A DNA stretch of 11,987 nt from a virus (Duplodnaviria > Heunggongvirae > Uroviricota > Caudoviricetes). Positions 1-11,987 of this stretch are shown here, in pieces. The notes beneath the pieces are model-generated. The model worked only from the letters and a program-made list of their open reading frames with translations. It was not told where the DNA came from and did not search any database. Made by a program: the position numbers and the translations under genes. Location of the stretch: the IMG/VR virus record IMGVR_UViG_2778261502_000005, positions 1 to 11,987 of that record; one strand, written 5' to 3'. Position 1 is the first letter of the stretch. Each line of letters opens with the position of its first letter.

Positions 1-516
1 ATGAAATTTAAAAAATGTCTTCTGCCTGTAGCAATGTTAGCGTCATTCACTCTGGCAGGATGCCAGTCAAATGCTGACGATCATGCCGCCGATGTTTATC
101 AAACCGATCAACTGAATACCAAACAAGAAACTAAAACCGTTAATATTATTTCCATTCTTCCCGCAAAAGTTGCCGTAGACAACTCCCAAAATAAACGGAA
201 CGCACAAGCCTTCGGCGCGCTTATTGGCGCAGTCGCTGGCGGTGTTATCGGCCACAACGTCGGTTCTGGCAGCAATTCCGGAACGACGGCAGGGGCAGTT
301 GGCGGCGGAGCTGTAGGCGCGGCAGCGGGTTCTATGGTGAATGATAAAACCTTAGTGGAAGGTGTTTCTTTAACGTATAAGGAAGGCACCAAAGTGTATA
401 CCTCCACCCAGGTGGGTAAAGAGTGCCAGTTTACGACAGGTTTAGCCGTTGTTATTACCACGACGTATAACGAAACGCGTATTCAGCCAAATACCAAATG
501 TCCTGAAAAGAGCTAA
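1..516 (+). CDS. Outer-membrane lipoprotein with a glycine-zipper region (SlyB/PCP-like), 171 aa
   Basis: ATG at window position 1. N-terminal signal peptide with lipobox L-A-G-C (MLASFTLAGCQS). Central Gly/Ala-rich run (GALIGAVAGGVIGHNVGSGSNSGTTAGAVGGGAVGAAAG) typical of glycine-zipper lipoproteins. Family assignment is from memory of the motif pattern, not alignment. Confidence 0.7.
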   Translation: MKFKKCLLPVAMLASFTLAGCQSNADDHAADVYQTDQLNTKQETKTVNIISILPAKVAVDNSQNKRNAQAFGALIGAVAGGVIGHNVGSGSNSGTTAGAVGGGAVGAAAGSMVNDKTLVEGVSLTYKEGTKVYTSTQVGKECQFTTGLAVVITTTYNETRIQPNTKCPEKS

Positions 517-531
517 TAATCAGGAGGAGTC

Positions 532-1071
532 ATGAAGAAAGTTTTTCTTTGCGCCATCTTGGCCTCCTTAAGCTATCCGGCTATCGCCTCATCATTGCAG
601 GATCAACTCTCGGCTGTCGCAGAAGCGGAACAGCAAGGTAAAAATGAAGAGCAAAAGCAGCATGATGAATGGGTCGCGGAGCGCAACAGGGAAATCCAGC
701 AAGAGAAGCAACGTCGCGCAAATGCCCAGGCCGCCGCTAACAAAAGAGCGGCAACGGCAGCAGCAAATAAGAAAGCTCGTCAGGATAAACTGGACGCCGA
801 AGCCTCTGCGGACAAAAAACGCGATCAAAGTTATGAAGATGAGCTACGCAGCTTAGAGATTCAGAAACAAAAACTGGCGCTGGCAAAAGAAGAAGCCCGC
901 GTTAAGCGAGAAAACGAATTTATCGATCAGGAACTGAAGCACAAAGCTGCGCAAACCGATGTGGTGCAATCTGAAGCTGACGCCAACAGAAATATGACTG
1001 AAGGCGGTCGCGATCTGATGAAAAGCGTGGGCAAAGCAGAAGAGAACAAATCGGACAGCTGGTTTAATTAA
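532..1071 (+). CDS. Secreted, highly charged coiled-coil-type protein of unknown function, 179 aa
   Basis: Strong SD AGGAGG 6-7 nt upstream of the ATG. Cleavable signal peptide ending AIA|SS. Lys/Glu/Gln/Ala-rich low-complexity body. Lies 15 bp after the lipoprotein, so probably co-transcribed. Confidence 0.7.
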   Translation: MKKVFLCAILASLSYPAIASSLQDQLSAVAEAEQQGKNEEQKQHDEWVAERNREIQQEKQRRANAQAAANKRAATAAANKKARQDKLDAEASADKKRDQSYEDELRSLEIQKQKLALAKEEARVKRENEFIDQELKHKAAQTDVVQSEADANRNMTEGGRDLMKSVGKAEENKSDSWFN

Positions 1072-1110
1072 TCGATGTTAGTAACTTCAAGCCTATGATT
1101 CTTGAAGATA

Positions 1111-1141
1111 AAAAACCCTCTGTAGTAACAGAGGGTTTTGT
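1111..1141. terminator. Bidirectional rho-independent terminator between the convergent secreted-protein gene and the Rz gene
   Basis: Hairpin CCCTCTG (1116-1122), loop TAGTAA, CAGAGGG (1129-1135). Flanked by AAAAAA upstream and TTTTGTT downstream, so it can terminate on either strand. Confidence 0.65.
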
Positions 1142-1290
1142 TCATTCATAGTGCAGGGATTAAAATCATTCCCACTCAATTATTTACGACAACCATAACC
1201 AATTGAGTGATAACATTTTTCCAAAACTTCATTTTTCTCATACCGTTTTATATACCGTCACCGGAAATCAGTACCATGAAAAATGCCATG

Positions 1291-1773
1291 CTATCTGGTC
1301 AGGGTGTCGTACTGTTTTTCACAGACTCTTCCGGCTTCGGCTGCCCGGTCAGCATACTCTGCCAGTTGTCTGTTTCTCTCGAGAGATTTGCTGAGCACGT
1401 CGGCAAGCAAAACTCCGGTGTCTGCGGCTGACGTCCCAGCGCCGACAATGGCGTTATACTGCCTGAGTTGCTCACGGATGGCAACGAGCTGTTGCTGCAA
1501 CCGGCCAGCGCGAGCGGCAGCATCAAGAGCATCATTGCGCGCCTGGTCGATCCTCTGTTGCGCTTTACGTTCATTGATCGCTTTCTCCTGTTCGTAGTGC
1601 TGACGAACTTTCTCATCTTCGGCTTTGCGCTCTTCCTTCGCCTGTGCATACCCGGCGTCGTACTGTCGGCTACCATGCACATTCCAGGCAACAACTCCTG
1701 ATAGAGTCAAAACAGCAAGCATCGCCACGATAACCAACTGTTTCCAGTATGCTTTTACGAATGCCAAGATCAT
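1291..1773 (-). CDS. Rz-like inner-membrane spanin (i-spanin), 160 aa
   Basis: N-terminal transmembrane anchor (LVIVAMLAVLTLSGVVAW) followed by a long charged coiled-coil region. Start overlaps the endolysin stop as ATGA (1770-1773). Last gene of the lysis cassette. Confidence 0.7.
   Translation of the reverse strand: MILAFVKAYWKQLVIVAMLAVLTLSGVVAWNVHGSRQYDAGYAQAKEERKAEDEKVRQHYEQEKAINERKAQQRIDQARNDALDAAARAGRLQQQLVAIREQLRQYNAIVGAGTSAADTGVLLADVLSKSLERNRQLAEYADRAAEAGRVCEKQYDTLTR
1299..1535 (-). CDS. Candidate Rz1-like outer-membrane lipoprotein spanin (o-spanin) embedded in the +1 frame of Rz, 78 aa
   Basis: Internal ATG-ATG at 1535/1532 in the alternate frame of Rz. Short signal peptide with lipobox LALAGC, then a Ser/Pro-containing mature part. 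Weak SD (AGG) upstream. An embedded o-spanin is the standard Rz/Rz1 arrangement. Confidence 0.4.
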   Translation of the reverse strand: MMLLMLPLALAGCSNSSLPSVSNSGSITPLSALGRQPQTPEFCLPTCSANLSRETDNWQSMLTGQPKPEESVKNSTTP

Positions 1774-2399
1774 ATCGCCAGCACCTTACTGGCAGTGATG
1801 TATCGCTCACGCCTGTCGTCGATGCCGTTCCGGCCACCATTGATAATCAGAGTTACACGTGCAATATCGCCGGTATACTTCATGCAGCCTTTGCTGGAGA
1901 AAAACCACGCCGCGCTACGAGCCGCATATTCGTCCTGAGCCAGCAGTTCAGGACTCTCCAGCAGGTCAACCTTCAGACCGTTTCCACAGTCACGATAGTT
2001 ATTCAAACCGGTAATCTGGATAAGTCCGCGCCCACGGTAATTCCAGCCATCGCCGGGAGCATTGTTCCCCATGCGTTTGCTGTACACCAGATTTGCGATC
2101 GCGCGCTGGCGCTCAAGTGACAATGGTGGTTCGCCTGCGCGTCGCCCCAATACGTTGGCCTGTCCCTGAGTGAGACGCCCAGCCCGAACGAAGTTAACCA
2201 GTCCGCTGACGCTGTAGTTGAAATTCTCCTGCAACCGAGTGAAGCCCACAGACTCATGCCCGACCTGAGCAATAAACATTGCCTGATCTTCGGTTTTGCT
2301 GATACCAAACTCTTTCATCGCAGAAATTATATGCGAGAACCAGCGGTCGGCCAGCGACTCGCTGATACCAGCAGCTCGCTGAAATTGTTTAATCTCCAT
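1770..2399 (-). CDS. Endolysin, glycoside hydrolase family 19 (chitinase-like lysozyme) type, 209 aa
   Basis: Contains NYRGRGLIQITGLNNY, which matches the GH19 catalytic-region signature as I recall it, and a downstream AAWFF motif. No signal peptide. Sits between the holin-like genes and Rz with overlapping start and stop codons. Confidence 0.8.
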   Translation of the reverse strand: MEIKQFQRAAGISESLADRWFSHIISAMKEFGISKTEDQAMFIAQVGHESVGFTRLQENFNYSVSGLVNFVRAGRLTQGQANVLGRRAGEPPLSLERQRAIANLVYSKRMGNNAPGDGWNYRGRGLIQITGLNNYRDCGNGLKVDLLESPELLAQDEYAARSAAWFFSSKGCMKYTGDIARVTLIINGGRNGIDDRRERYITASKVLAI

Positions 2400-2697
2400 G
2401 TTTAGACCTCGCTAATTTGAAAATCTGAACGACGTTACCGCGTGTTTTAATAACCGCAGCAAGCATGACTACGTTGATAATGACCTCAGATAAATCCACT
2501 GCCATTGGCATGCTGAACCAGATTGCATAGGCGACACGAACCGGAATACTAGCCGCAGCAACAATCAGGAAATAAGCAAGCCAGCCACCCCATCGTCGGT
2601 GTTGAGATCCATTGCGCCGGAAAGTAACAACACGAATAGCTATGCCAGTACAAATAACTGCATTGGTGATAAGCAAAAAAATCTCATGCGTTACCAT
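2389..2697 (-). CDS. Holin-like small membrane protein (second of two), 102 aa
   Basis: Three predicted hydrophobic helices and a charged C-terminal tail (KTRGNVVQIFKLARSKHGD). SD GGGAG about 8 nt upstream of the ATG. Overlaps the upstream holin by 14 nt and the endolysin by 11 nt. Confidence 0.55.
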   Translation of the reverse strand: MVTHEIFLLITNAVICTGIAIRVVTFRRNGSQHRRWGGWLAYFLIVAAASIPVRVAYAIWFSMPMAVDLSEVIINVVMLAAVIKTRGNVVQIFKLARSKHGD

Positions 2698-3088
2698 CGT
2701 CTTTTCTCCCAGGAATCAACTCGCGTGGATTATCAGAACGATGATAGAGCCATATACCAATACGAACGGCGACAATTGCCGACACGAACGCACCTGTAGA
2801 AAATGCAATCCCTTTCTCGAATGAGTCCTGCGTGATGGTAGGGATCAGGCTGGCTACACCGATAAGGATGGATGCTGTAGGTTTGTAAAAGAGAAGGCCG
2901 CAGAGGAAGCTGAGCATCGACAGAAGAACACGACGACGGATTGGGTATTCTACTGCAGAGGTAACAAAAATTACCGCACCAGCCAAAGATCCCAAAGCGA
3001 CCTCTGGAGGAACTCCTGCTATCACCGACACTAAAGAACCAACGCTAAGCCACTGATTTAAAGATTCATTGGTTAACTGTATTGACAT
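2684..3088 (-). CDS. Holin-like membrane protein (first gene of the lysis cassette), about 134 aa
   Basis: Three to four hydrophobic segments. Start placed at the ATG at 3088, which has a GGTGG SD-like sequence 5 nt upstream. In-frame alternative starts exist at ATG 3100 and GTG 3118 (M-V-V-F-M spacing), so a dual-start holin/antiholin pair is possible but not demonstrated. Confidence 0.55.
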   Translation of the reverse strand: MSIQLTNESLNQWLSVGSLVSVIAGVPPEVALGSLAGAVIFVTSAVEYPIRRRVLLSMLSFLCGLLFYKPTASILIGVASLIPTITQDSFEKGIAFSTGAFVSAIVAVRIGIWLYHRSDNPRELIPGRKDDGNA

Positions 3089-3384
3089 AAAAACCACCAT
3101 TTTTGAGCATAATGACACTCTTAGCTAGTGAGTTCATTATACACAGCGAACCTTATATGGATTAGTGGTGGTTTATTTTAACGCTTAAAAAGCATACGCT
3201 GCTAATAGCACAACGCCTTGCAATCAGATGCAAACCTTTGTCCACTACTAATCTCAATGAAATAGATCAGCAAAGCATTTGACTCTCCCCGTTGGATGAT
3301 GTGTGAAGTGCTGACTAGAATGCTGCAAATATGATATGATGTTTGGCATCCATTGACTTTAATTTGTTATATAGATAAATACAT

Positions 3385-4386
3385 ATGAAAGAAATAAAAT
3401 CACTAACAGGTGTTAGAGGAATAGCTGCAATTTACGTAGTTCTTTATCACTTTACAAACGCAAAAATACCTTTTCTATGGAACGGATATCTAGCAGTAGA
3501 TCTTTTTTTCGTATTAAGCGGATTTATAATGTGTATGGTATACTCTAAAAATTTCACACAAGAAATATCTGTTAGTGAATTTGGAAAATTTATTTGGCAT
3601 AGATTTTCAAGAATATATCCATTATATTTATTTGTTTTATTATTAACAATAGTTATTCAAGTAAATCAATCATCGCCACCATCAACTCAAAATCTCATAA
3701 TAAATTTTATGATGTGGCAAAATTTATTTAATAATGGAATGGTTGGTGCATCATGGTCTGTTAGCGTTGAATTAATTGCGTATTTAATATTTCCGCCTCT
3801 AATATTCTTATTAACCGATAAGAAATGGTTATGTTTCATAATAATTTACACATCAATGTCAATGTTGTTTTATATTACAACAATTGACAACCCTGGTAGT
3901 AGCGGGCCACTTGATATATATAGCGGAATCCCTTCAATAATGAGAGGTGTTTGTGGTTTCACTATAGGTTGTTGTTGCTATGTTTTATTTGATAAATACA
4001 AACACACATTTAATGTTATTGCATATACTCAAGATATTTTGGCGGCTTTAGTAATAGCGTGTTTACTAACAAAAGGAATGGATGTTGTTTTTGTTATTTT
4101 GACCGGATTATATATATCATCGCTTTATTATAGCACTGGAATAACAGGATGGTTACTATCAACAAAACCTATTCATTATTTGGGGGAGTTGTCTTTTTCA
4201 ATTTACCTTACGCACCTGATGATACAAAGGCATTTTATATTTGAAGTGAATGCAATAACTGAATGGTTAAATGTTAGTTATATAAATGATGTGTTTGTTA
4301 TGGTTATATCTACACTGATGTTTTCTATATTAACATTTCATTTAGTAGAAAAGCCAAGCAGAAATATTCTAAGAAAACTAAAATAA
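3385..4386 (+). CDS. Acyltransferase-3 family integral-membrane O-acyltransferase (Oac-like O-antigen acetylase candidate), 333 aa
   Basis: N-terminal RGIAAIYVVLYHF and DLFFVLSGF motifs characteristic of acyltransferase-3 (R-x10-H and V-x2-FF-x-S-G). About ten hydrophobic helices. Very AT-rich (about 31% GC in the first 100 nt). No SD. Convergent with the tailspike gene. Confidence 0.8.
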   Translation: MKEIKSLTGVRGIAAIYVVLYHFTNAKIPFLWNGYLAVDLFFVLSGFIMCMVYSKNFTQEISVSEFGKFIWHRFSRIYPLYLFVLLLTIVIQVNQSSPPSTQNLIINFMMWQNLFNNGMVGASWSVSVELIAYLIFPPLIFLLTDKKWLCFIIIYTSMSMLFYITTIDNPGSSGPLDIYSGIPSIMRGVCGFTIGCCCYVLFDKYKHTFNVIAYTQDILAALVIACLLTKGMDVVFVILTGLYISSLYYSTGITGWLLSTKPIHYLGELSFSIYLTHLMIQRHFIFEVNAITEWLNVSYINDVFVMVISTLMFSILTFHLVEKPSRNILRKLK

Positions 4387-4393
4387 ACAAAAA

Positions 4394-4428
4394 ATGCCGA
4401 CGGATACTTAAACAATCTATCGGCATTA
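4394..4428. terminator. Bidirectional hairpin terminator between the convergent acyltransferase and tailspike genes
   Basis: AATGCCGA (4394-4401) pairs with TCGGCATT (4421-4428), with an inner GATA/TATC extension. A-run on the left and a T-rich tract on the right. Confidence 0.5.
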
Positions 4429-4434
4429 AATTTA

Positions 4435-6864
4435 TTAAGGATTACTTACCAACCCCTTCCATCCTCCACTTCCTGCGCTTGTGCATTGATAGAAGTATCC
4501 TGTGTTTTTGTCAACATATAATCCTCCTGGCTTACCATTAATAACTCCGTAAGGAGTTCCTGAACCGCTTATCAATGAAATACCATGTATAAAAGAAACA
4601 TTCTGACTATATGTTCCTGTCCCTGGAGCTCTGGCCATATCATTAATAGCACAAAGCCATGATCCAGCTGTTGATATGTTTGATATATTATCATCATCAT
4701 TTGGGACAATGGCTATCATTGGTATTGTTGCGTTTTTACCATAACCTCTAATATTACTTATTCCTCTTTGAACTCTTGAGTCTGTCAAATCTCTAATCAA
4801 TGGAACACTTACGCTATCTTCACAGATAAAGTTATTTATCGTGTAGTCATCACAGCTTGAATCAGTTTCTATATGAACCAATCCCTCGGCATCAGTATCG
4901 GAAGCTCCTGAGTATCCACCATCCCAAAAAATGCCATCTATGTTTATATATCTTGCTCCGCCGCTAATATATATATTACCAGCACCTCCGATAACCCTTA
5001 ATTCATTTATATAAATACCGTAGAACCCTAAAATTTCAACAACCCTTGCATGGTTTGATGTGTATTTTGAGTTGTTTGCGTTTTCAACCGTACAACTTGC
5101 TATAACGGAATACCTGGCATTTTGATGCCGCCCCGATGGTATTGATGCTGTATTAATGTGCTCAATTTGGAATCCATGAACACAATTTTTTGCATAACAT
5201 CTATAAAATTTAACACATCTTGCGGGCATTGTTGTTGAGTGGCCCTTCTGCTGAAATCCAGTCATTACCCCATCCGCATAACAATCCATCACGGTAACAT
5301 TATAACTTCCTTCATCAATTTCAATACCATGCTGATTCCCTGTCCATACCATATCAGGGTCATCGTTCCATACTCGGCAGCGGTTAATTACAATATCACT
5401 GCTATTATGCGTTGTAATGAGATCGTCAAGTTGACTGTTTTGAACAAAAGTGTCTTCAACAACAATGTCATAGCTACCACCAACTGCATTATTATTAATA
5501 TTCCCATCATCGAAATAATACCCAGCACAAATATCTATACCATGCTGCAAACCACGCTTACAGTAAACGTTTTTGATGGAACTGTGGCTGACAGTAGAAA
5601 ATAAAATAGTAGTCCCCTGTGTGGCATCCATCCATGTTTCTGACGGATTTCTTGCTCGATTGTTAGCATCTACACATAAGTCTTCTATGTGGATAGAAGT
5701 ATCGTAGTTTGTCCTGAATACCCTGTATTCATAAAGCTCGTTCTGAATACAGTTTTCAATTATCGGCATTGTTGGTAGTGCTAGAATAACGGTCTTAAAT
5801 TTCCCCACCCCACGCAATCTAACGTAAGATGGTACTTTCAGTGCAGAGTTAATCCCGTAAGTACCTTCAGAAAGAATAAGCTCTTTCACCGTTGCCATTT
5901 TTGCCGCTTGCAGTGCTTTGTTCAATTTATCATGACAATCCGTTACTCCATCAGGAACAATTCCGTAATAATCAGCATACACTTCATTGCAGATTCTTTT
6001 CCAACGCTTTCCACCAGGCGTCACAATTATCATTCCATCATCATCAATTGTTGTTAAATCAGTGCTATCATAATAAAAATACCCACCTCCAATACCAGAG
6101 CCTAAAGTATGCTCTAATACATATATTCTTTGCTGTAAATTTGTTGGTTCTATATTGCGTAAATTAGAAATGGAAGCACAATTGCCAATAAGTTTTAAGC
6201 CATCACTTGCTGCTAGCTGAATCATTACATCGGATGCAGATCCAGACTGTGGAAGGACCATAATAGGATTACCATTGTCATCCATCGCTACCACTTTGTT
6301 TTTACGATTCTCAGCATCAGGCAAACTTGGTATTGGCTCAGGCGTTCTAAGAGTACGACCTAGATTTGTATTAGCAAGTTTATCGACATAATTTTTAGTT
6401 GCCGCATCCTGTGGGCGCACAGGGTCTCGCAGATTTCTGATGTAGTTGTTAATAGCGTCATAATAATTCGACACAAAAGATGGCTTACGAAGAGCAAGTG
6501 AAAACCAACTTCTTACCTGCTGGATCAGCATCGTTAGCTTATCAAACGCGTCTTCGTGCACCTCAGCAAAAAACTTACCCTGGTTTCTAAGATCTGTTTC
6601 CTGAGTAACCGATAGTTCTCGCAATATGGAAATCTGATAACCATTAGCCAGTGCCTTCGACAGAATTACATTGCCACCGTTATACCCTCCCGCACCAGTG
6701 ACTGTGTAATCAGTATCAAGATCCAGCACAGTGATATTCTCGTCAAGGTCAATCACCTGCACTACTAAATCAGATTTATTGAAAACCCTAAAGGTATAAG
6801 GGAATGATGTCGTAACGCCGTTACCGGTGTATTCGTTGTGGTTAACTTCGGTTGAGACCGTCAT
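4435..6864 (-). CDS. Tailspike/tail fibre with T7-tail-fibre-like N-terminal anchor domain and C-terminal beta-helix (pectate-lyase-like) domain; probable polysaccharide depolymerase, 809 aa
   Basis: N-terminus (YTGNGVTTSFPYTF...DLVVQV...DYTVT...IRNLRDPVRPQDAATKNYVDKL) follows the conserved pattern of the T7 gp17 N-terminal domain. The remainder is rich in Gly/Asn/Ser/Thr/Ile as expected for a right-handed beta-helix. SD GGAG 7 nt upstream of the ATG. GC drops after roughly the first 170 codons. Confidence 0.8.
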   Translation of the reverse strand: MTVSTEVNHNEYTGNGVTTSFPYTFRVFNKSDLVVQVIDLDENITVLDLDTDYTVTGAGGYNGGNVILSKALANGYQISILRELSVTQETDLRNQGKFFAEVHEDAFDKLTMLIQQVRSWFSLALRKPSFVSNYYDAINNYIRNLRDPVRPQDAATKNYVDKLANTNLGRTLRTPEPIPSLPDAENRKNKVVAMDDNGNPIMVLPQSGSASDVMIQLAASDGLKLIGNCASISNLRNIEPTNLQQRIYVLEHTLGSGIGGGYFYYDSTDLTTIDDDGMIIVTPGGKRWKRICNEVYADYYGIVPDGVTDCHDKLNKALQAAKMATVKELILSEGTYGINSALKVPSYVRLRGVGKFKTVILALPTMPIIENCIQNELYEYRVFRTNYDTSIHIEDLCVDANNRARNPSETWMDATQGTTILFSTVSHSSIKNVYCKRGLQHGIDICAGYYFDDGNINNNAVGGSYDIVVEDTFVQNSQLDDLITTHNSSDIVINRCRVWNDDPDMVWTGNQHGIEIDEGSYNVTVMDCYADGVMTGFQQKGHSTTMPARCVKFYRCYAKNCVHGFQIEHINTASIPSGRHQNARYSVIASCTVENANNSKYTSNHARVVEILGFYGIYINELRVIGGAGNIYISGGARYINIDGIFWDGGYSGASDTDAEGLVHIETDSSCDDYTINNFICEDSVSVPLIRDLTDSRVQRGISNIRGYGKNATIPMIAIVPNDDDNISNISTAGSWLCAINDMARAPGTGTYSQNVSFIHGISLISGSGTPYGVINGKPGGLYVDKNTGYFYQCTSAGSGGWKGLVSNP

Positions 6865-6968
6865 GTTAAATCTCCAGATAGTCGCAGCACCCGTTGCGCC
6901 GCATATCCGATTATTCTATTACCCGAAAAACCATATATGGATAGATAGACCATGAATACAAACAGATA

Positions 6969-6983
6969 TTACCTTTCAGGTGA
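6969..6983. promoter_or_regulatory. Operator-like palindrome TTACC-N5-GGTGA upstream of the tailspike gene
   Basis: TTACCtttcaGGTGA, a 9/10 match to the TTACC-N5-GGTAA motif found around the repressor gene. Lies about 105 bp upstream of the tailspike ATG, next to a TTGCAA hexamer on the minus strand. Confidence 0.4.
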
Positions 6984-7012
6984 TTTGCAAAACGTGCTGG
7001 ATAGCAAACAAA

Positions 7013-7708
7013 TTATTTGATACTGTATAAATATACAGTTATTGCATGGAGAAGATAAGATGCAGCAGTATCACTATCCACTGGAAGACGGATTTTCCGA
7101 AGAAAGTCATCTGATGGCTGCCATTGTTCATGCATGACAAATTTGCCTAATTGCCCTGGCCCACCAGGAGGAACAAAGTTATTCATCACGGCGTTGTTTG
7201 CGCCGGGGTCATGATGCACAGAATCCCCGTTTTTTGTCCTGCTCTCCCTCTCTTGGTTAAATGACTGGTTATATGACTGGTTCTGGATCCCGTTTTTGGG
7301 ATCATTCAACATCCCGTTTTTGGGATCATTCAACATCCCGTTTTTGGGTATATTCCCGTTTTCGGGTATATTCCCGTTTTCGGGTATATTCCCGTTTTCG
7401 GGTTCATTGCCCCCCTCCCGGTTGCCTTTAATGTTCCCGTTTTTGGTTATATTAAGAGAGAAAACCCGCACTCTTTTTGTCGCTCCCTTTCTATCTCCGG
7501 TATCTGAAATAAGCCCCATTTTCATGAGCGATATAAGCCCGGCCTGCACGGTTTTTTTATTCAGGCAAGTGTCTTTAACGAGGCGTTCTATGCTGGGGTA
7601 GCAGAGGTTATATTCATCGGCTCTGTCAGCCATCGAGAGCAGTATGAGCTTTAATGATGAGCTACCTGGATCTGTCTCCCAGGCCCAATCTGTTGCATGT
7701 CTGCTCAT
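7013..7708 (-). CDS. Phage replication initiator, O-like, with N-terminal winged-HTH domain and internal repeat region, 231 aa
   Basis: N-terminal region (LKLILLSMADRADEYNLCYPSIERLVKDTCLNKKTVQAGLISLMKMGLISD) has the pattern of phage and plasmid replication-initiator HTH domains. The central part is a tandem peptide repeat (ENGNIP x3, NDPKNGML x2) encoded by iteron-like DNA repeats. Starts 13 nt after the upstream gene. Confidence 0.75.
   Translation of the reverse strand: MSRHATDWAWETDPGSSSLKLILLSMADRADEYNLCYPSIERLVKDTCLNKKTVQAGLISLMKMGLISDTGDRKGATKRVRVFSLNITKNGNIKGNREGGNEPENGNIPENGNIPENGNIPKNGMLNDPKNGMLNDPKNGIQNQSYNQSFNQERESRTKNGDSVHHDPGANNAVMNNFVPPGGPGQLGKFVMHEQWQPSDDFLRKIRLPVDSDTAASYLLHAITVYLYSIK
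7021..7040. promoter_or_regulatory. Candidate LexA (SOS) box
   Basis: TACTGTATAAATATACAGTT matches the consensus TACTGTATATATATACAGTA at 18 of 20 positions, with perfect CTGT-N8-ACAG arms and an all-A/T spacer. It lies within the last 9 codons of the O-like gene, about 157 bp upstream of the tailspike ATG. Confidence 0.55.
7289..7453. repeat. Iteron-like direct repeats (candidate replication origin) inside the O-like gene
   Basis: Seven tandem units sharing the core CCCGTTTT(T/C)GG(G/T): 24-bp units at 7289 and 7313; 18-bp units at 7337, 7355, 7373, 7391 and 7436. The core CCCGAAAACGGG is itself palindromic. A further 12-bp tandem (ATGACTGGTT-AT/CT) lies at 7261-7284. Confidence 0.65.
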
Positions 7709-7723
7709 GATTAATCTCCGCTA

Positions 7724-7924
7724 TCAGCTTGAGTGTTGTGGGGAGGAATTAATCATGATCTGCTTAATCTCTGCCCTGATGCGACGGTTTGATTCCATGG
7801 TGCACTCAACACAGTGTCCGTTGTAAACCCAGCGTTCACTGTCATGTCCGTGCTTACATGGTTTTCCGGTGTAGTAGCGTTTAAGTCCGCGCTTTGCGGC
7901 ATCAATACGTGTAATGATTTCCAT
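7724..7924 (-). CDS. Small Cys/His-rich (putative zinc-binding) protein in the cII-equivalent position, 66 aa
   Basis: Start placed at the internal ATG at 7924 (MEIITRI...), with an AGGG SD-like sequence upstream; the longer ORF beginning at 7987 adds a hydrophobic leader. Motif C-x-H-x-H-x13-H-C-x2-C. Function not recognisable from sequence. Confidence 0.45.
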   Translation of the reverse strand: MEIITRIDAAKRGLKRYYTGKPCKHGHDSERWVYNGHCVECTMESNRRIRAEIKQIMINSSPQHSS

Positions 7925-8004
7925 GGTAAGCCCTGTTATTAGTATTGGGATTACGGTTATTTTGTGCTGACACAAAAAAAAGATCAACCATATTTGGTTT
8001 TTTA

Positions 8005-8019
8005 TTACCTTTGAGGTAC
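8005..8019. promoter_or_regulatory. Operator-like palindrome TTACC-N5-GGTAC between the cro-side terminator and the Cys/His gene
   Basis: TTACCtttgaGGTAC, a 9/10 match to the shared motif. Confidence 0.4.
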
Positions 8020-8029
8020 GGATAGATAT

Positions 8030-8053
8030 GAAAAGACCGCCGGATGGCGGTCT
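8030..8053 (-). terminator. tR1-like rho-independent terminator downstream of the Cro-like gene
   Basis: GC-rich 8-bp stem AGACCGCC (8034-8041), loop GGAT, GGCGGTCT (8046-8053). On the minus strand it is followed by TTTTCAT. Sits between the Cro-like stop (8075) and the next gene. Confidence 0.5.
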
Positions 8054-8074
8054 ACAGAGGGTTGTGGCTGGATA

Positions 8075-8305
8075 TCATGAGTAGAAGAAGTATGCCAGTT
8101 CTGCTTTTGAGCGCAGCCATTGTCTTGTTTTACAGGCTTTAAAAAGCCCATTCATCAATACTTTACCTGGCATTTTGCGCTTACCTGTTAAGTGAGTCTG
8201 GATATAGTGACTCGTCGTTCCGGCTTCCTGTGCGAAGGCTTCACGCTCATCCGGAGTAAGTGCAAGCCAGTGCTTTTTGAAATCGAAATGTCCGTTATCG
8301 CTCAT
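8075..8305 (-). CDS. Cro-like small HTH regulator (DicC/YdaS-like), 76 aa
   Basis: Small basic protein divergently transcribed from the repressor gene. Putative HTH around EAFAQEAGTTSHYIQTHLTG. The position matches lambda cro. Family call is tentative. Confidence 0.6.
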   Translation of the reverse strand: MSDNGHFDFKKHWLALTPDEREAFAQEAGTTSHYIQTHLTGKRKMPGKVLMNGLFKACKTRQWLRSKAELAYFFYS

Positions 8306-8341
8306 AGCTATTGCCTGATATTTATTTCAGATAATAAATAT

Positions 8342-8404
8342 TCACCTATAAGGTAACAAAAATCAAGGATAGTTACCCATGAGGTGCATTTACCTGTTGG
8401 GTAA
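8342..8404. promoter_or_regulatory. OR-like operator cluster of three TTACC-N5-GGTAA-type palindromes in the divergent Cro-like/repressor promoter region
   Basis: Sites at 8342-8356 (TCACCtataaGGTAA), 8373-8387 (TTACCcatgaGGTGC) and 8390-8404 (TTACCtgttgGGTAA, perfect). An AT-rich 9-6-9 palindrome ATATTTATT-N6-AATAAATAT lies at 8318-8341. Confidence 0.6.
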
Positions 8405-8459
8405 TATTGCTTTAAATTGAATCATCTACTGATTCATATATGAGGCGATTTTCCAGAAA

Positions 8460-9044
8460 ATGAAAAGTATCCAGGACGTCCGCAGGCAAAATCTCAACGA
8501 CTTGATCGACCGTGAATTCAATGGTGTTCAGACGCGGATGGCAGAAAAACTTGGAACTCAGGCAAATCTGGTAAACCGCTGGGCTCTTGGCAAGAAGGTT
8601 ATCGGCGACCAGGTTGCGCGAAAAATTGAAGCTGCCGCCAATAAACCCCGTAATTGGCTTGATATCGATCGCTCGCTTTCTCAGGAAGGTTTTCAGCCTG
8701 TCGGCCCGAGTGATATAGGTCAGCTGGCTGCTCACAACCTGGAACGCTGGATGAGCGAAAGCCGCGACCTTTCAACACAGGGAAAACTTCACCGCGCATC
8801 CGGCGTCGCCCAGGTGACAATCAGCCGCCTGTTAAACAATGAGGTCAGCGTTTCCATTTCCACCCTGGAGAATGTTGCATCCGCATTCGGGCGTCACGGC
8901 TATGAATTACTGATTCACCCGCACGACCCTGCGACTATCAACTATGACCGCTCGCGCTACGCATTGTTACCCGAAACAGAGAAGGCAAAGATCGAAAGTT
9001 ACATTGAATTTGTCATCAGCCAGAACGAAAAAAACAAACAATAA
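8460..9044 (+). CDS. Phage repressor with two tandem XRE-type HTH domains and no S24 peptidase domain, 194 aa
   Basis: First HTH around QTRMAEKLGTQANLVNRWALGKK, second around LHRASGVAQVTISRLLNNEV. No Ala-Gly/Ser-Lys autocleavage module is recognisable. The nearest SD-like GAGG is about 14 nt upstream of the ATG. Flanked by operator palindromes on both sides. Confidence 0.8.
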   Translation: MKSIQDVRRQNLNDLIDREFNGVQTRMAEKLGTQANLVNRWALGKKVIGDQVARKIEAAANKPRNWLDIDRSLSQEGFQPVGPSDIGQLAAHNLERWMSESRDLSTQGKLHRASGVAQVTISRLLNNEVSVSISTLENVASAFGRHGYELLIHPHDPATINYDRSRYALLPETEKAKIESYIEFVISQNEKNKQ

Positions 9045-9065
9045 AATCATATTTTTCAGTAAGTA

Positions 9066-9090
9066 AGCCGCCTTCTGGCGGCTTTTTTAT
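9066..9090 (+). terminator. Rho-independent terminator after the repressor gene
   Basis: AGCCGCC (9066-9072), loop TTCT, GGCGGCT (9077-9083), followed by TTTTTTATT. Confidence 0.75.
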
Positions 9091-9100
9091 TGCCAGATAG

Positions 9101-9123
9101 ATTACCTTACGGGTAATTTTTTT
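9101..9123 (+). terminator. Second hairpin with T-tract; also a perfect copy of the operator palindrome (OL-like distal site)
   Basis: ATTACC-ttacg-GGTAAT followed by TTTTTTT. The core TTACCttacgGGTAA lies at 9102-9116. Confidence 0.5.
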
Positions 9124-9135
9124 AACTCATATCTA

Positions 9136-9178
9136 TTGACACCAAACCAAATAAGCATAATTATTACCTCAACGGTAA
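9136..9178 (+). promoter_or_regulatory. pL-like early promoter with overlapping operator, driving the small ORF, methyltransferase and phosphatase
   Basis: Consensus -35 TTGACA (9136-9141), 17-bp spacer, -10 candidate AATTAT (9159-9164). Perfect operator TTACCtcaacGGTAA (9164-9178) overlaps the -10 and the predicted transcription start. SD GAGGT at 9185-9189. Confidence 0.55.
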
Positions 9179-9197
9179 CAGACCGAGGTAACAAGTT

Positions 9198-9347
9198 ATG
9201 CAGTGGAAAATCATCAACGGTTGGTACTGCGTTACTGCATGCGGATTCATGAGCTGGAAGTTCCGCACCTTACAGGAAGGTATTAAGTGGGCTTTCGTCA
9301 GCAAAGAAGCTCGCGATGTGGCCAACGATAACGAGATATGGGAGTAG
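9198..9347 (+). CDS. Small ORF of unknown function (first gene of the early operon), 49 aa
   Basis: ATG with SD GAGGT 8 nt upstream. Trp- and Cys-containing (MQWKIINGWYCVTACGF...). Absent from the ORF track because of its length. Coding status unverified. Confidence 0.4.
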   Translation: MQWKIINGWYCVTACGFMSWKFRTLQEGIKWAFVSKEARDVANDNEIWE

Positions 9348-9421
9348 GTTAGCAAATGAGTGAATTGTCAATCATCGAAATCACACCAGACATAGCGGCA
9401 TAGGATGTTGTGGGGTGGTTT

Positions 9422-10072
9422 ATGACTAAGAAATACACACTAATCTATGCAGATCCACCCTGGGTATACCGGGACAAAGCCGCAGATGGTAATCGCGGTG
9501 CCGGTTTTAAATATCCGGTTATGAGTGTGCTGGATATCTGCCGCCTTCCTGTGTGGGATTTGGCCGATGAAAACTGTCTGTTGGCCATGTGGTGGGTGCC
9601 AACACAACCACTCGAAGCACTAAAAGTTGTTGAAGCCTGGGGATTCCGTCTGATGACGATGAAGGGCTTCACGTGGATAAAATGTGGTAGTCGACAACCA
9701 GATAAACTGGTTATGGGTATGGGACACATGACTCGCGCCAATAGTGAAGATTGCCTGTTTGCAGTAAAGGGAAAACTACCTCCGCGCATTAATGCAGGGA
9801 TCGTTCAGTCATTTACCGCACCGCGGCTTGAGCATTCAAGAAAACCAGATGTCGTTCGTGAAAAACTTGTGCAATTGTTAGGCGATGTTTCTCGCATTGA
9901 ACTGTTCGCCCGCCAGTCGTCTCATGGCTTCGATGTTTGGGGTAATCAGTGCGAAGACCCGGCAGTGCAACTACACCCTGGATACGCGTTGGATATTGGC
10001 GGATTAACAAATGCATTCAGCAATGCTCCGGTGTCACCAATAGACAACCAGGGGCGGGAGCGTGCAGCATGA
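9422..10072 (+). CDS. MT-A70 family N6-adenine DNA methyltransferase, 216 aa
   Basis: Catalytic DPPW motif in [10 protein letters not shown]. Start placed at the ATG at 9422, with a GGGGTGG SD-like sequence upstream; the ORF track uses GTG at 9410. Stop overlaps the phosphatase start as ATGA. Confidence 0.8.
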
Positions 10073-10728
10073 ACCTATATCAACGCATCAATGGCGCTGA
10101 CTGGTGCAATATCTTCGTCGTCGGCGATCTGCATGGGTGCTACACGCTGCTGATGAACGAACTCGACAAAGTTTCATTCGACCCGGCGCGCGATTTACTT
10201 ATTTCCGTTGGTGACCTTGTTGACCGCGGCGCTGAAAACGTCGAATGCCTGGATTTGATTACTATGCCGTGGTTCCGAGCTGTTCGTGGCAACCATGAGC
10301 AGATGATGCTGGATGCACTGGTCAACGGCGGAAGTTTCGGACATTGGATGTCAAACGGCGGTGGATGGTGGCACCAACTTGATTCTGAGCAGGATGTGCA
10401 ACTCAAATACCTTCTGCCAAAGATTACCAACCTCCCGATGATTATCGAACTGGTTACCGGCAATAAGAAGGTCGTCATCTGTCACGCAGACTACCCGCAC
10501 AACGAATACGCATTCGATAAGCCAGTACCAGAAGAAATGGTGATATGGAATCGTGAACGGGTTAGCGACGCGCAGGACGGTATTGTCTCGGAGATAACCG
10601 GTGCCGATTTGTTCATCTTCGGTCATACGCCAGCACATCACCCACTGGTGTATGCAAACCAGATGTACATCGACACCGGCGCAGTGTTCTGCGGAAATCT
10701 GACGCATACCAAAGTCCAGGAAGGATAG
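10069..10728 (+). CDS. Lambda-type serine/threonine protein phosphatase (metallophosphoesterase, PrpA/PrpB-like), 219 aa
   Basis: Signature motifs GDLHG, GDLVDRG and GNHE. The ATG at 10069 overlaps the methyltransferase stop. The longer track ORF from 9949 is an out-of-context N-terminal extension. Confidence 0.85.
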
Positions 10729-10730
10729 AA

Positions 10731-11987
10731 TTATTTATTACTGTCTTCCATCCACTTCTCAAACTTCGACGGGGAGAACGGAATCAGATCCGTATGCTCC
10801 CCGTTAATCCAGGAATCAATCATATCGGCCCACTGCTGCAACATGTAGGCGCGCTGTCTGGCGTATTCCGCTTTGTTATATACGGCGCGCACACCTTTCT
10901 GCTCATGTGCCAGAGCCTTTTCAATCCAGTCTGAAGGATAACCAGCCTCATGCAACAACGTACTTGCTGTACGGCGCATATCGTGTACGGTGAAGTCCTG
11001 AATATGCTCACCATCTTCATTTATTATTTTCACCGTTCTGTCGATCAGAGAGTTCAGCGCGGCATTAGATAATGGCTTCCGGAAATTGTAACGACCAGGA
11101 ACCAGATATTCACTTCCACCAGCGCACATCTGCAACCCAACCAATATATCCTGTGCCTGTTTAGGCAGGTAAATAACGTGCGCCCGGCTTCCCTTCATGC
11201 GGTCTGAAGGAATTGTCCATGTCCATTTTTTAAAATCTATTTCATCCCACGTTGCATTGGTGAATTCGCCTTTACGAACCATAGTGATAAGCACCAGCTT
11301 TAAAGCCATTTTCATAGTGCCCATAGCACCAATGGCATCCAGCGTGCGGAAGAACAGGCCAATTTCTTCTGGTGTCAGTGTTCGCTCTCGTGGTTTAAAT
11401 ATGGCGATAGACGAAGGTTTAATGTCAGCCGCAGGATTAAACAAACCATGACCACGGTCATTGGCATGACGGTATACGCTGCTGATGATCTCCCTGGCCT
11501 GCACTGCTGTTGCCCGGCCACCGCGTTCGACAATCCGGTCACACAAATCACGAACCATCGATGTGGTAATTTCAGCCATCATTTTATTGCCAAGAACCGG
11601 AAGTATGTCACGGTCGATCACCGCCTGTTTCATTGCGCGGGTACTGTCAGCCAGGATGACGTGTTTCATATAACTGTCGGTATGTACCGCAAACGTCTCG
11701 GCACCACGAATCTTTTTGATACCGTCACGTTTAGCCGCAGCCGGTGACTGGCCTGCTTTAAGCAGCTTCTTTGCAGCAATCAGTTCTTCTCGCGCTTCTG
11801 CCAGGCTGATACCGTCACGCCCATACTGCCCGATTACCAGCGTTTCGCGGCGACCGTTGATACGGTAGTCGTAGCGAAACGAGACCGTGCCTGACGTAAG
11901 CACAGCTACATACAGCCCGTCACGATCGGAGACCTTGTACAGTTTGTCCTGCGGCTTGAGGTTTTTTAATTTTGTATCGGTAAGCAC
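10731..11987 (-). CDS. int: Tyrosine recombinase, phage integrase with N-terminal arm-binding domain, 418 aa
   Basis: N-terminus MLTDTKLKNLKP...DGLYVAV is typical of arm-type-binding integrase N-termini. C-terminal catalytic H-x-x-R (HDMRRT) and tyrosine in RAVYNKAEY. First codon is GTG at the window edge, so the true start may lie just outside. The 3' end is 2 bp from the phosphatase stop. Confidence 0.85.
   Translation of the reverse strand: MLTDTKLKNLKPQDKLYKVSDRDGLYVAVLTSGTVSFRYDYRINGRRETLVIGQYGRDGISLAEAREELIAAKKLLKAGQSPAAAKRDGIKKIRGAETFAVHTDSYMKHVILADSTRAMKQAVIDRDILPVLGNKMMAEITTSMVRDLCDRIVERGGRATAVQAREIISSVYRHANDRGHGLFNPAADIKPSSIAIFKPRERTLTPEEIGLFFRTLDAIGAMGTMKMALKLVLITMVRKGEFTNATWDEIDFKKWTWTIPSDRMKGSRAHVIYLPKQAQDILVGLQMCAGGSEYLVPGRYNFRKPLSNAALNSLIDRTVKIINEDGEHIQDFTVHDMRRTASTLLHEAGYPSDWIEKALAHEQKGVRAVYNKAEYARQRAYMLQQWADMIDSWINGEHTDLIPFSPSKFEKWMEDSNK

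Follow-up and report, generated by a model that had tools for sequence, protein, structure and literature searches.

Between positions 3119 and 7012 of the DNA analysed here (11,987 nucleotides, positions 1 to 11,987 of IMG/VR virus record IMGVR_UViG_2778261502_000005; hereafter the window), a tailspike gene lies next to a convergently transcribed acyltransferase gene. We interpret this interval as the receptor-recognition and lysogenic-conversion module of an epsilon15/phiV10-like temperate podovirus, left in a prophage that has decayed by deletion, containing a mobile cassette and offering a possible mechanism of superinfection exclusion (an interpretation to which we assign a probability of roughly 0.85). 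A tailspike/acyltransferase module of this kind is standard for an Escherichia coli prophage of the epsilon15/phiV10 type, and in that respect the locus is largely ordinary.

The whole window matches identically within contig NLUV01000011.1 of the E. coli assembly GCA_002233275.1. Its first 1071 positions are host flank with the E. coli genes yfgH and yfgI, and guaA lies just past the opposite end of the window. A 17-bp direct repeat, ATTGAGTGGGAATGATT, occurs in both host–prophage junction regions of the source contig (locus L017), one copy forming the attR core (1164..1180, no strand) and the second overlapping the stop codon of guaA, about 190 bp past the window end; homology to relatives with an intact attP begins precisely at position 1164. 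By sequence comparison, the window is thus identified as E. coli chromosome in which the 3′ end of guaA is occupied by a decayed epsilon15/phiV10-like (Uetakevirus) prophage. Read along the minus strand, the prophage encodes first a P4-type integrase, then a leftward early operon (a phosphatase and an MT-A70 methyltransferase), a repressor-like helix-turn-helix protein and a cro-like gene; an O-like replication initiator comes next, then the tailspike and the acyltransferase convergent with it, and finally two proteins of holin type, the GH19 endolysin and an Rz-like spanin. The gene order is that of phiV10 p25–p31 and of a 41-kb circular E. coli record (L002), and the N-terminus of the tailspike is homologous to epsilon15 gp20 and phiV10 p25 (anchor match to PHROG 1640, E = 1.9e-149). 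A complete set of virion and replication modules was not found, and the element is a remnant, not a phage.

The tailspike (809 amino acids in length; 4435..6864, minus strand; described from tblastn, Pfam, AlphaFold and Foldseek) consists of an epsilon15/phiV10-type anchor (approximately residues 1–220), a linker with a Phage_tail_beta region and then, at residues 247–809, a β-helix depolymerase-like domain together with a C-terminal domain. In tblastn searches, residues 1–227 (1–326 in the case of phiV10) were 72–79% identical to phiV10, epsilon15, SPN1S and related phages, and the C-terminal part found no counterpart in these same phages. The C-terminal module recurs in Salmonella behind a P22 head-binding domain. 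These alignments support a composite protein in which a conserved virion anchor at the N-terminus is joined to a receptor-binding/enzymatic domain obtained by horizontal exchange, and the chimeric tailspike proposed in the initial annotation is confirmed in this sense. Two details of that proposal have to be corrected. The module boundary, set there at about codon 170, is placed by homology at approximately codon 246, and the anchor proper already ends at about codon 220. The label ‘T7-like’ for the anchor is not borne out, as the Pfam T7 fibre model PF03906 scored 20.5 bits, below its cut-off of 25.2, and an anchor profile searched against the PDB matched the N-termini of Klebsiella-phage depolymerases and no chain labelled T7 gp17. 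A distant relationship between the anchor and T7 fibres may nonetheless exist. The AlphaFold model of the anchor (residues 1–230) had a pLDDT of 43.5, too low to use.

The exchanged domain forms part of an AT-rich exchangeable cassette (3207..6126, no strand) that is defined by its homology to P22-like prophages of Salmonella (L012–L016) and contains the acyltransferase promoter region, the acyltransferase gene, a 48-bp spacer and tailspike codons 247–809. Across its length, it is 83.4% identical in DNA to the Salmonella prophages, with no insertions or deletions in the coding parts, and 47 of the 48 nucleotides of the spacer (4387–4434; 97.9%) are the same. The Salmonella tailspike is a protein of 710 amino acids in which a C-terminal module of 563 residues, 87% identical in amino acids to ours, follows the P22 head-binding domain (PF09008), while the acyltransferase is 99% identical in E. 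coli and 86–89% identical in Salmonella. Homology to the Uetakevirus backbone stops at approximately 3160–3241 on the holin side and resumes at approximately 6185–6381 inside the tailspike gene, and this backbone-variable interval nearly coincides with the stretch that matches Salmonella. A DNA-level search of 50,697 phage records yielded no match to the cassette, and among 5,426 complete E. coli genomes matches were confined to the anchor part of the tailspike gene. The pair of receptor-binding domain and acyltransferase is new with respect to both collections, and the locus is a clear example of such a pair being common to two phage genera and two host genera as one unit.

A separate observation concerns the Salmonella loci L012–L014 and L016 (8646–13183), in which the P22-like prophage has decayed to an integrase, the same acyltransferase and the tailspike. 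This remnant sits between a formate/nitrite-transporter-family gene and an omptin gene and keeps the cassette independently.

The AlphaFold model of tailspike residues 231–809 (pLDDT 89.8; pTM 0.88) displays short repeated strands, and Pfam recognises a pectate-lyase-like β-helix (PF12708) in the protein. A Foldseek search with the C-terminal model returned 167 PDB matches at E ≤ 0.001, the matches listed being β-helix tailspikes, depolymerases, epimerases, glucanases and an adhesin. This part of the tailspike models as a right-handed β-helix, the fold that had been expected for it. The top Foldseek match was the pre-neck appendage gp12 of Bacillus phage phi29 (E = 1.3e-17; TM 0.67), and a profile of the receptor-binding family matched the gp12 sequence at E = 2.4e-49 over approximately 450 residues, with the motifs HGIDI, DDxITTHxS, NxxGxEIDxGS and KxH common to both. 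Residues H441, D444, D480, D481, H486, E515, D517 and H542 are invariant in 24 homologues, several of them within the motifs shared with gp12, and these acidic and histidine residues are candidates for the catalytic residues. With 32 proteins in 5.8 billion, the receptor-binding family is a small one; it is found behind at least three recognisable types of anchor (epsilon15-type, P22 head-binding and PF18668), besides longer (approximately 800–990 amino acids) and anchor-less forms. NCBIfam gave no meaningful match for either the tailspike or the acyltransferase.

The other gene of the cassette encodes a stand-alone AT3-family acyltransferase (333 amino acids in length; 3385..4386, plus strand). 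The PF01757 match (89.5 bits against a cut-off of 31; E = 2.8e-25) covers residues 5–317 of 333, no fused SGNH or other domain was detected in the Pfam scan, and the protein matches PHROG 3333, ‘O-acetyltransferase’, at E = 1e-44. The motifs R/K-X10-H and RxxR, which are essential in AT3 proteins (PMC9558356), are represented by R11-X10-H22 and R73-F-S-R76, and FFVLSG occupies residues 41–46. A crude Kyte–Doolittle scan resolved seven strong hydrophobic segments, compared with the ten transmembrane helices of Oac-type AT3 proteins. According to the phiV10 record, the gene occupies the exact slot of the experimentally characterised oac, which is annotated there as acetylating the O-antigen and giving superinfection immunity, and the acyltransferase is by analogy a probable lysogenic-conversion O-antigen O-acetyltransferase. 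That it would acylate the O-antigen and thereby block the cognate tailspike follows from this position and from the precedents of phiV10 and of Shigella phage Sf6, in which acetylation blocks the phage's own endorhamnosidase (PMC9558356). Of the convergent O-antigen-modifying acyltransferase described earlier, the AT3 family with its essential motifs, the convergent orientation and the oac slot are established, and the O-antigen is its putative acceptor by synteny.

Two putative signals accompany the gene. A consensus scan located a promoter-like site upstream of it (3311..3340, plus strand; CTGACT, 18 nucleotides, TG-TATGAT), the hexamers of which are conserved in the Salmonella copy of the cassette and which is predicted to drive the acyltransferase. 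Between the two convergent genes, RNA folding identified a common hairpin (4393..4427, no strand) with fold energies of -17.0 kcal/mol on the minus strand and -14.4 kcal/mol on the plus strand, followed by a T-run on the tailspike strand; this shared hairpin is likely to be a bidirectional terminator.

Proteins homologous to the receptor-binding domain come, by their names, from the Salmonella serovars Luke and Bere, which we take to be O47 in the Kauffmann–White scheme. A preprint describes a prophage tailspike cluster common to E. coli O118/O151 and Salmonella O47 (PMC10370184), E. coli O118 and O151 contain ribitol-5-phosphate (PMC7685785), and phi29 gp12 recognises and digests Bacillus wall teichoic acid (PMC9863714). 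Taken by analogy, it is reasonable to infer that the tailspike targets a teichoic-acid-like ribitol-phosphate O-antigen. The more specific idea that it is no glycosidase but a teichoicase-like relative of gp12 by descent, cutting the ribitol-phosphate linkage (O118/O151, O47), with the AT3 protein acylating that same unit, is offered tentatively and could well be wrong. If true, one depolymerase family would act on receptors of two kinds, wall teichoic acid in Gram-positive and O-antigen in Gram-negative hosts, and P22-like and epsilon15-like phages would exchange a depolymerase together with its antidote gene as one cassette.

Under our interpretation, the trimeric tailspike of the intact phage would bind and cleave the host O-antigen, probably one of the ribitol-phosphate-containing E. 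coli O118/O151 or Salmonella O47 type. In the lysogen, the acyltransferase would be expressed from its own promoter and would acylate the O-unit at the periplasmic face, and the acylated O-unit would resist the same tailspike, resulting in superinfection exclusion and serotype conversion. The tailspike β-helix domain and the stand-alone AT3 acyltransferase, with their shared terminator hairpin, would constitute a mobile two-gene cassette that becomes joined by recombination to more than one kind of virion anchor, in E. coli to the epsilon15 type and in Salmonella to the P22 head-binding type. A role of the tailspike in setting host range, as first suggested, does not apply to this element, since a remnant without virion genes has no virion left for the tailspike to serve; the acyltransferase alone could still matter to the cell.

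Several observations weigh against this interpretation. The identity of the cassette to its Salmonella counterpart is a mosaic that ranges from 58% to 99%. A 600-bp core at 4107–4706, which takes in the spacer and the 3′ end of each gene, is 96–99% identical, and positions 4707–5156 in the β-helix part (approximately tailspike residues 570–720) are 58–69% identical, which points to recombination, or to diversifying change, within the receptor-binding domain. Such a mosaic would mean that the cassette has been reshuffled internally, not moved once as a block. Related receptor-binding domains (73–74% amino acid identity) occur without the acyltransferase in Uetakevirus-like and P22-like Salmonella prophages, and the pairing of tailspike and acyltransferase is therefore frequent, not obligatory. 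Over its full length the acyltransferase is 20% identical to Sf6 Oac, and it has no detectable BLAST similarity to phiV10 Oac, its acceptor being read from the position of the gene alone. Lastly, the O118/O151/O47 cluster of the preprint may differ from the exact tailspike subfamily found here.

The same absence of close similarity to a characterised Oac, the acyltransferase-free relatives of the receptor-binding domain and the fact that AT3 proteins act on many glycans (PMC9558356) would all fit an acyltransferase that modifies another envelope glycan (enterobacterial common antigen, capsule or peptidoglycan), or a moron unrelated to the tailspike receptor. We consider this unlikely, though not negligibly so, because the gene lies in the slot taken by oac in phiV10 and Sf6 and by gtr genes in the relatives, because it travels with the receptor-binding domain in two phage genera and because the near-identity of the 600-bp core extends over the 3′ termini of the two genes. 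An O-antigen-modifying conversion gene paired with its tailspike remains the preferred reading.

The surroundings of the pair are explained by comparison with complete relatives, i.e. the 41-kb circular E. coli record (L002), phiV10 and several chromosomal prophages. Their common order is terminase, head and tail genes, tailspike, O-antigen-modification gene, holins, endolysin, Rz, attP, integrase, early genes, and O-like and P-like replication genes. The modification gene itself differs among them, being oac in phiV10, another acyltransferase in some (of the AT3 type, or one accompanied by a separate gene for an SGNH hydrolase) and gtrA/gtrB in one more. Since this order is common to the relatives, tailspike, conversion gene and lysis genes stand in the native arrangement of the genus, whose late operon has the tailspike gene as its last. 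Intact E. coli prophages at the same site that encode exactly this tailspike and acyltransferase are 99.6–99.9% identical to the window over positions 1–7101 and run on past 7101 into tail genes, the identity stopping exactly at that position. The native DNA upstream of the tailspike is kept for 237 bp (6865..7101, minus strand; collinear up to 7101 with the intact prophages L006–L011 and with L002, L004, L005 and L018), and homology to the O-like gene starts at 7093. The two homology blocks hence overlap by 9 bp, and comparison of both parental sequences reveals an imperfect microhomology, TTT(T/A)CCGAA, at this deletion junction (7093..7101, no strand). As measured on L002, approximately 26.7 kb are missing, a loss that covers every head and tail gene as well as the late genes of the replication region, and on these alignments it is only through this internal deletion that the tailspike adjoins a replication gene. 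Illegitimate recombination at the 9-bp microhomology would have taken out the remainder of the O-like gene together with the P-like gene, terminase, head genes and tail genes, setting the tailspike gene directly behind the truncated replication gene.

The truncated O-like replication initiator (231 amino acids, compared with 271 when intact; 7013..7708, minus strand; PF13730) takes its last 26 or so codons from the DNA upstream of the tailspike. It matches profile positions 1–220 of 281 of PHROG 1032, ‘replication initiation protein’, and the exact chimeric protein was found on one contig only in the public collection. All open reading frames from Rz to the tailspike are intact, and the prophage part differs from the intact copies by seven single-nucleotide polymorphisms; the tailspike has a single amino acid change (R351C) and the intact acyltransferase frame only two (V90I and V234I). 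So few polymorphisms, together with intact reading frames, indicate that the decay is recent.

As a result of the deletion, the tailspike now follows immediately after the cro-like and O-like genes in the same orientation, its reading frame and those of all four lysis genes are intact, and other E. coli remnants at this site have a replication-gene fragment adjoining the tailspike gene. The element could accordingly be pictured as a domesticated remnant in which the repressor-controlled early promoter drives tailspike and lysis genes, a few cells lysed in the SOS response set depolymerase free and selection keeps the structure. This seems highly improbable to us. The exact junction is present on a single contig in the collection, and seven polymorphisms relative to the intact copies speak for a recent deletion, so that intactness needs no selection. 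The other remnants differ in their end-points, one of them having a destroyed tailspike and an intact acyltransferase, and the convergent acyltransferase with its terminator hairpin separates the tailspike from the lysis genes. Selective retention of the tailspike in remnants was likewise considered and rejected, given the differing end-points of same-site remnants and the one without a tailspike; ordinary decay is simpler.

A further remnant between yfgI and guaA (L025, strain FG31-1; 5766–11008) bears more than one deletion; a mere fragment of its tailspike is left, but a different acyltransferase of 382 amino acids is intact, which argues that the acyltransferase rather than the tailspike is what persists in remnants.

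The account given in the initial annotation, a foreign AT-rich cassette inserted between the replication and lysis modules of a lambdoid prophage, where P, nin and Q would normally lie, retains almost no probability, for although a compositionally distinct cassette does lie between a replication gene (7013–7708) and the holins in the window, the complete relatives and phiV10 all have the order virion genes, tailspike, conversion gene, lysis genes, attP and integrase, the intact prophages matching 1–7101 continue into tail genes and the replication gene is truncated at the microhomology junction. Nor is the organisation lambdoid, as in the relatives small accessory genes, the terminase and virion genes come after the replication genes; the ‘atypical’ location is the native Uetakevirus order with an adjacency created by deletion. 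The lesson is that a prophage gene in an apparently atypical position can simply mark the scar of an internal deletion.

The uneven base composition on which that account drew is itself confirmed. The interval 3119–7012 has 36.5% GC, compared with 47.9% in the remaining window, and likelihood change-points fall after position 3055 (log-likelihood ratio 46) and after 4448 (24), with a third after 8470. The first two bracket the acyltransferase in a segment of 30.5% GC. Its open reading frame has 29.1% GC (earlier estimated at about 31%) and 21.0% at third codon positions (GC3), against 49.2% for the integrase, 50.4% for the repressor-like gene, 49.8% for the MT-A70 gene and 53.5% for the endolysin, and the contrast with integrase and immunity genes at about 50% therefore holds. 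Within the tailspike, GC falls from 42.8% in codons 1–230 (GC3 38%) to 36.5% in codons 231–326 (GC3 25%) and 38.6% in codons 327–809 (GC3 30%). This drop is real but modest, and clearest at third positions; the likelihood change-point scan registered no separate change-point inside the tailspike, positions 4449–8470 forming a single segment of 40.9% GC. The tailspike is AT-rich past its anchor, as had been noted, to a modest degree and without a compositional boundary of its own.

Beyond the holin-side end of the module lies the whole lysis cassette (1291..3118, minus strand), which corresponds in order and annotation to phiV10 p27–p30 and has Pfam matches to PF16931, PF05449, PF00182 and PF10721. 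It encodes, all on the minus strand and all assigned by Pfam, a holin-like membrane protein (2684–3118, or 2684–3088 with the start of annotated homologues), a holin with three transmembrane segments (2389–2697), the GH19 endolysin (1770–2399) and an Rz-like DUF2514 spanin (1291–1773). On the other side of the prophage, between the repressor-side genes and the MT-A70 methyltransferase, a second deletion (9345–9391) has left 47 bp of unrelated sequence where relatives have approximately 2.7 kb encoding RecT, small regulators and a PD-(D/E)XK nuclease, an event that would have taken the RecT/exonuclease region. Compared with an intact-prophage strain (L006), the host flank (1–1163) has 15 differences in 1,163 bp and the prophage part (1164–7101) seven in 5,938 bp. 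Fewer differences in the prophage than in the flank imply a phage younger than the divergence of the hosts, and this points to a recent spread of the phage between E. coli lineages.

Inside the truncated O-like gene, two adjoining tandem arrays occupy 7287–7403 (a 24-bp unit repeated 2.6 times and an 18-bp unit repeated 3.8 times). Both units hold the palindrome-like core TCCCGTTTT(C/T)GGGA and encode GNIPEN and NGMLNDPK peptide repeats, and the arrays look like origin iterons within an initiator gene, as in lambda. In certain complete E. coli chromosomes (L004, strain 97-3250, 10247–12303; L005, 10307–12363), the Rz gene adjoins the integrase gene with an intact attP in between, virion genes flanking them on one side and early genes on the other, an arrangement that suggests either tandem lysogens or integration by another route.

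Among known systems, the closest is the Uetakevirus phiV10, in which tail fibre p25, oac p26, lysis genes p27–p30 and integrase p31 have the identical order and orientations, again with a convergent AT3-type acyltransferase between tailspike and holins. Tailspike residues 1–326 are 72% identical, and the lysis genes and integrase share approximately 80–98% DNA identity. In contrast to our element, phiV10 is a complete phage, whereas the element here has lost its virion and part of its replication modules, and the two receptor-binding domains are unrelated past residue 326 or so. The P22-like (Lederbergvirus-type) cassette of Salmonella L012–L016 resembles ours in its 333-residue acyltransferase, its convergent arrangement and its low GC content (35%), but adjoins an integrase or an att site rather than lysis genes, belongs to another host genus and stands behind the P22 anchor instead of the epsilon15-type one. 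In Sf6, a tailspike and a stand-alone AT3 O-acetyltransferase of 333 amino acids are also convergent, with a terminator between them, and the RxxR and FFxxSG motifs of its Oac lie at the same positions as in our protein. Sf6 differs in its P22-like backbone, in a tailspike from another β-helix subfamily and in the 20% identity of the acyltransferases already mentioned.

For the receptor-binding domain itself, the nearest comparison is phi29 gp12 (PDB 3GQ7, 3GQ8 and 3SUC), with a homologous β-helix domain over approximately 450 residues and the ability to digest a polyol-phosphate polymer (PMC9863714). The two proteins differ in that their identity is approximately 20%, that gp12 has another N-terminal attachment domain and an autocleaving C-terminal chaperone, of which there is no evidence in our tailspike, and that the host of our tailspike is Gram-negative. 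The locus offers a testable link between phi29 gp12-like depolymerases and ribitol-phosphate-containing O-antigens.

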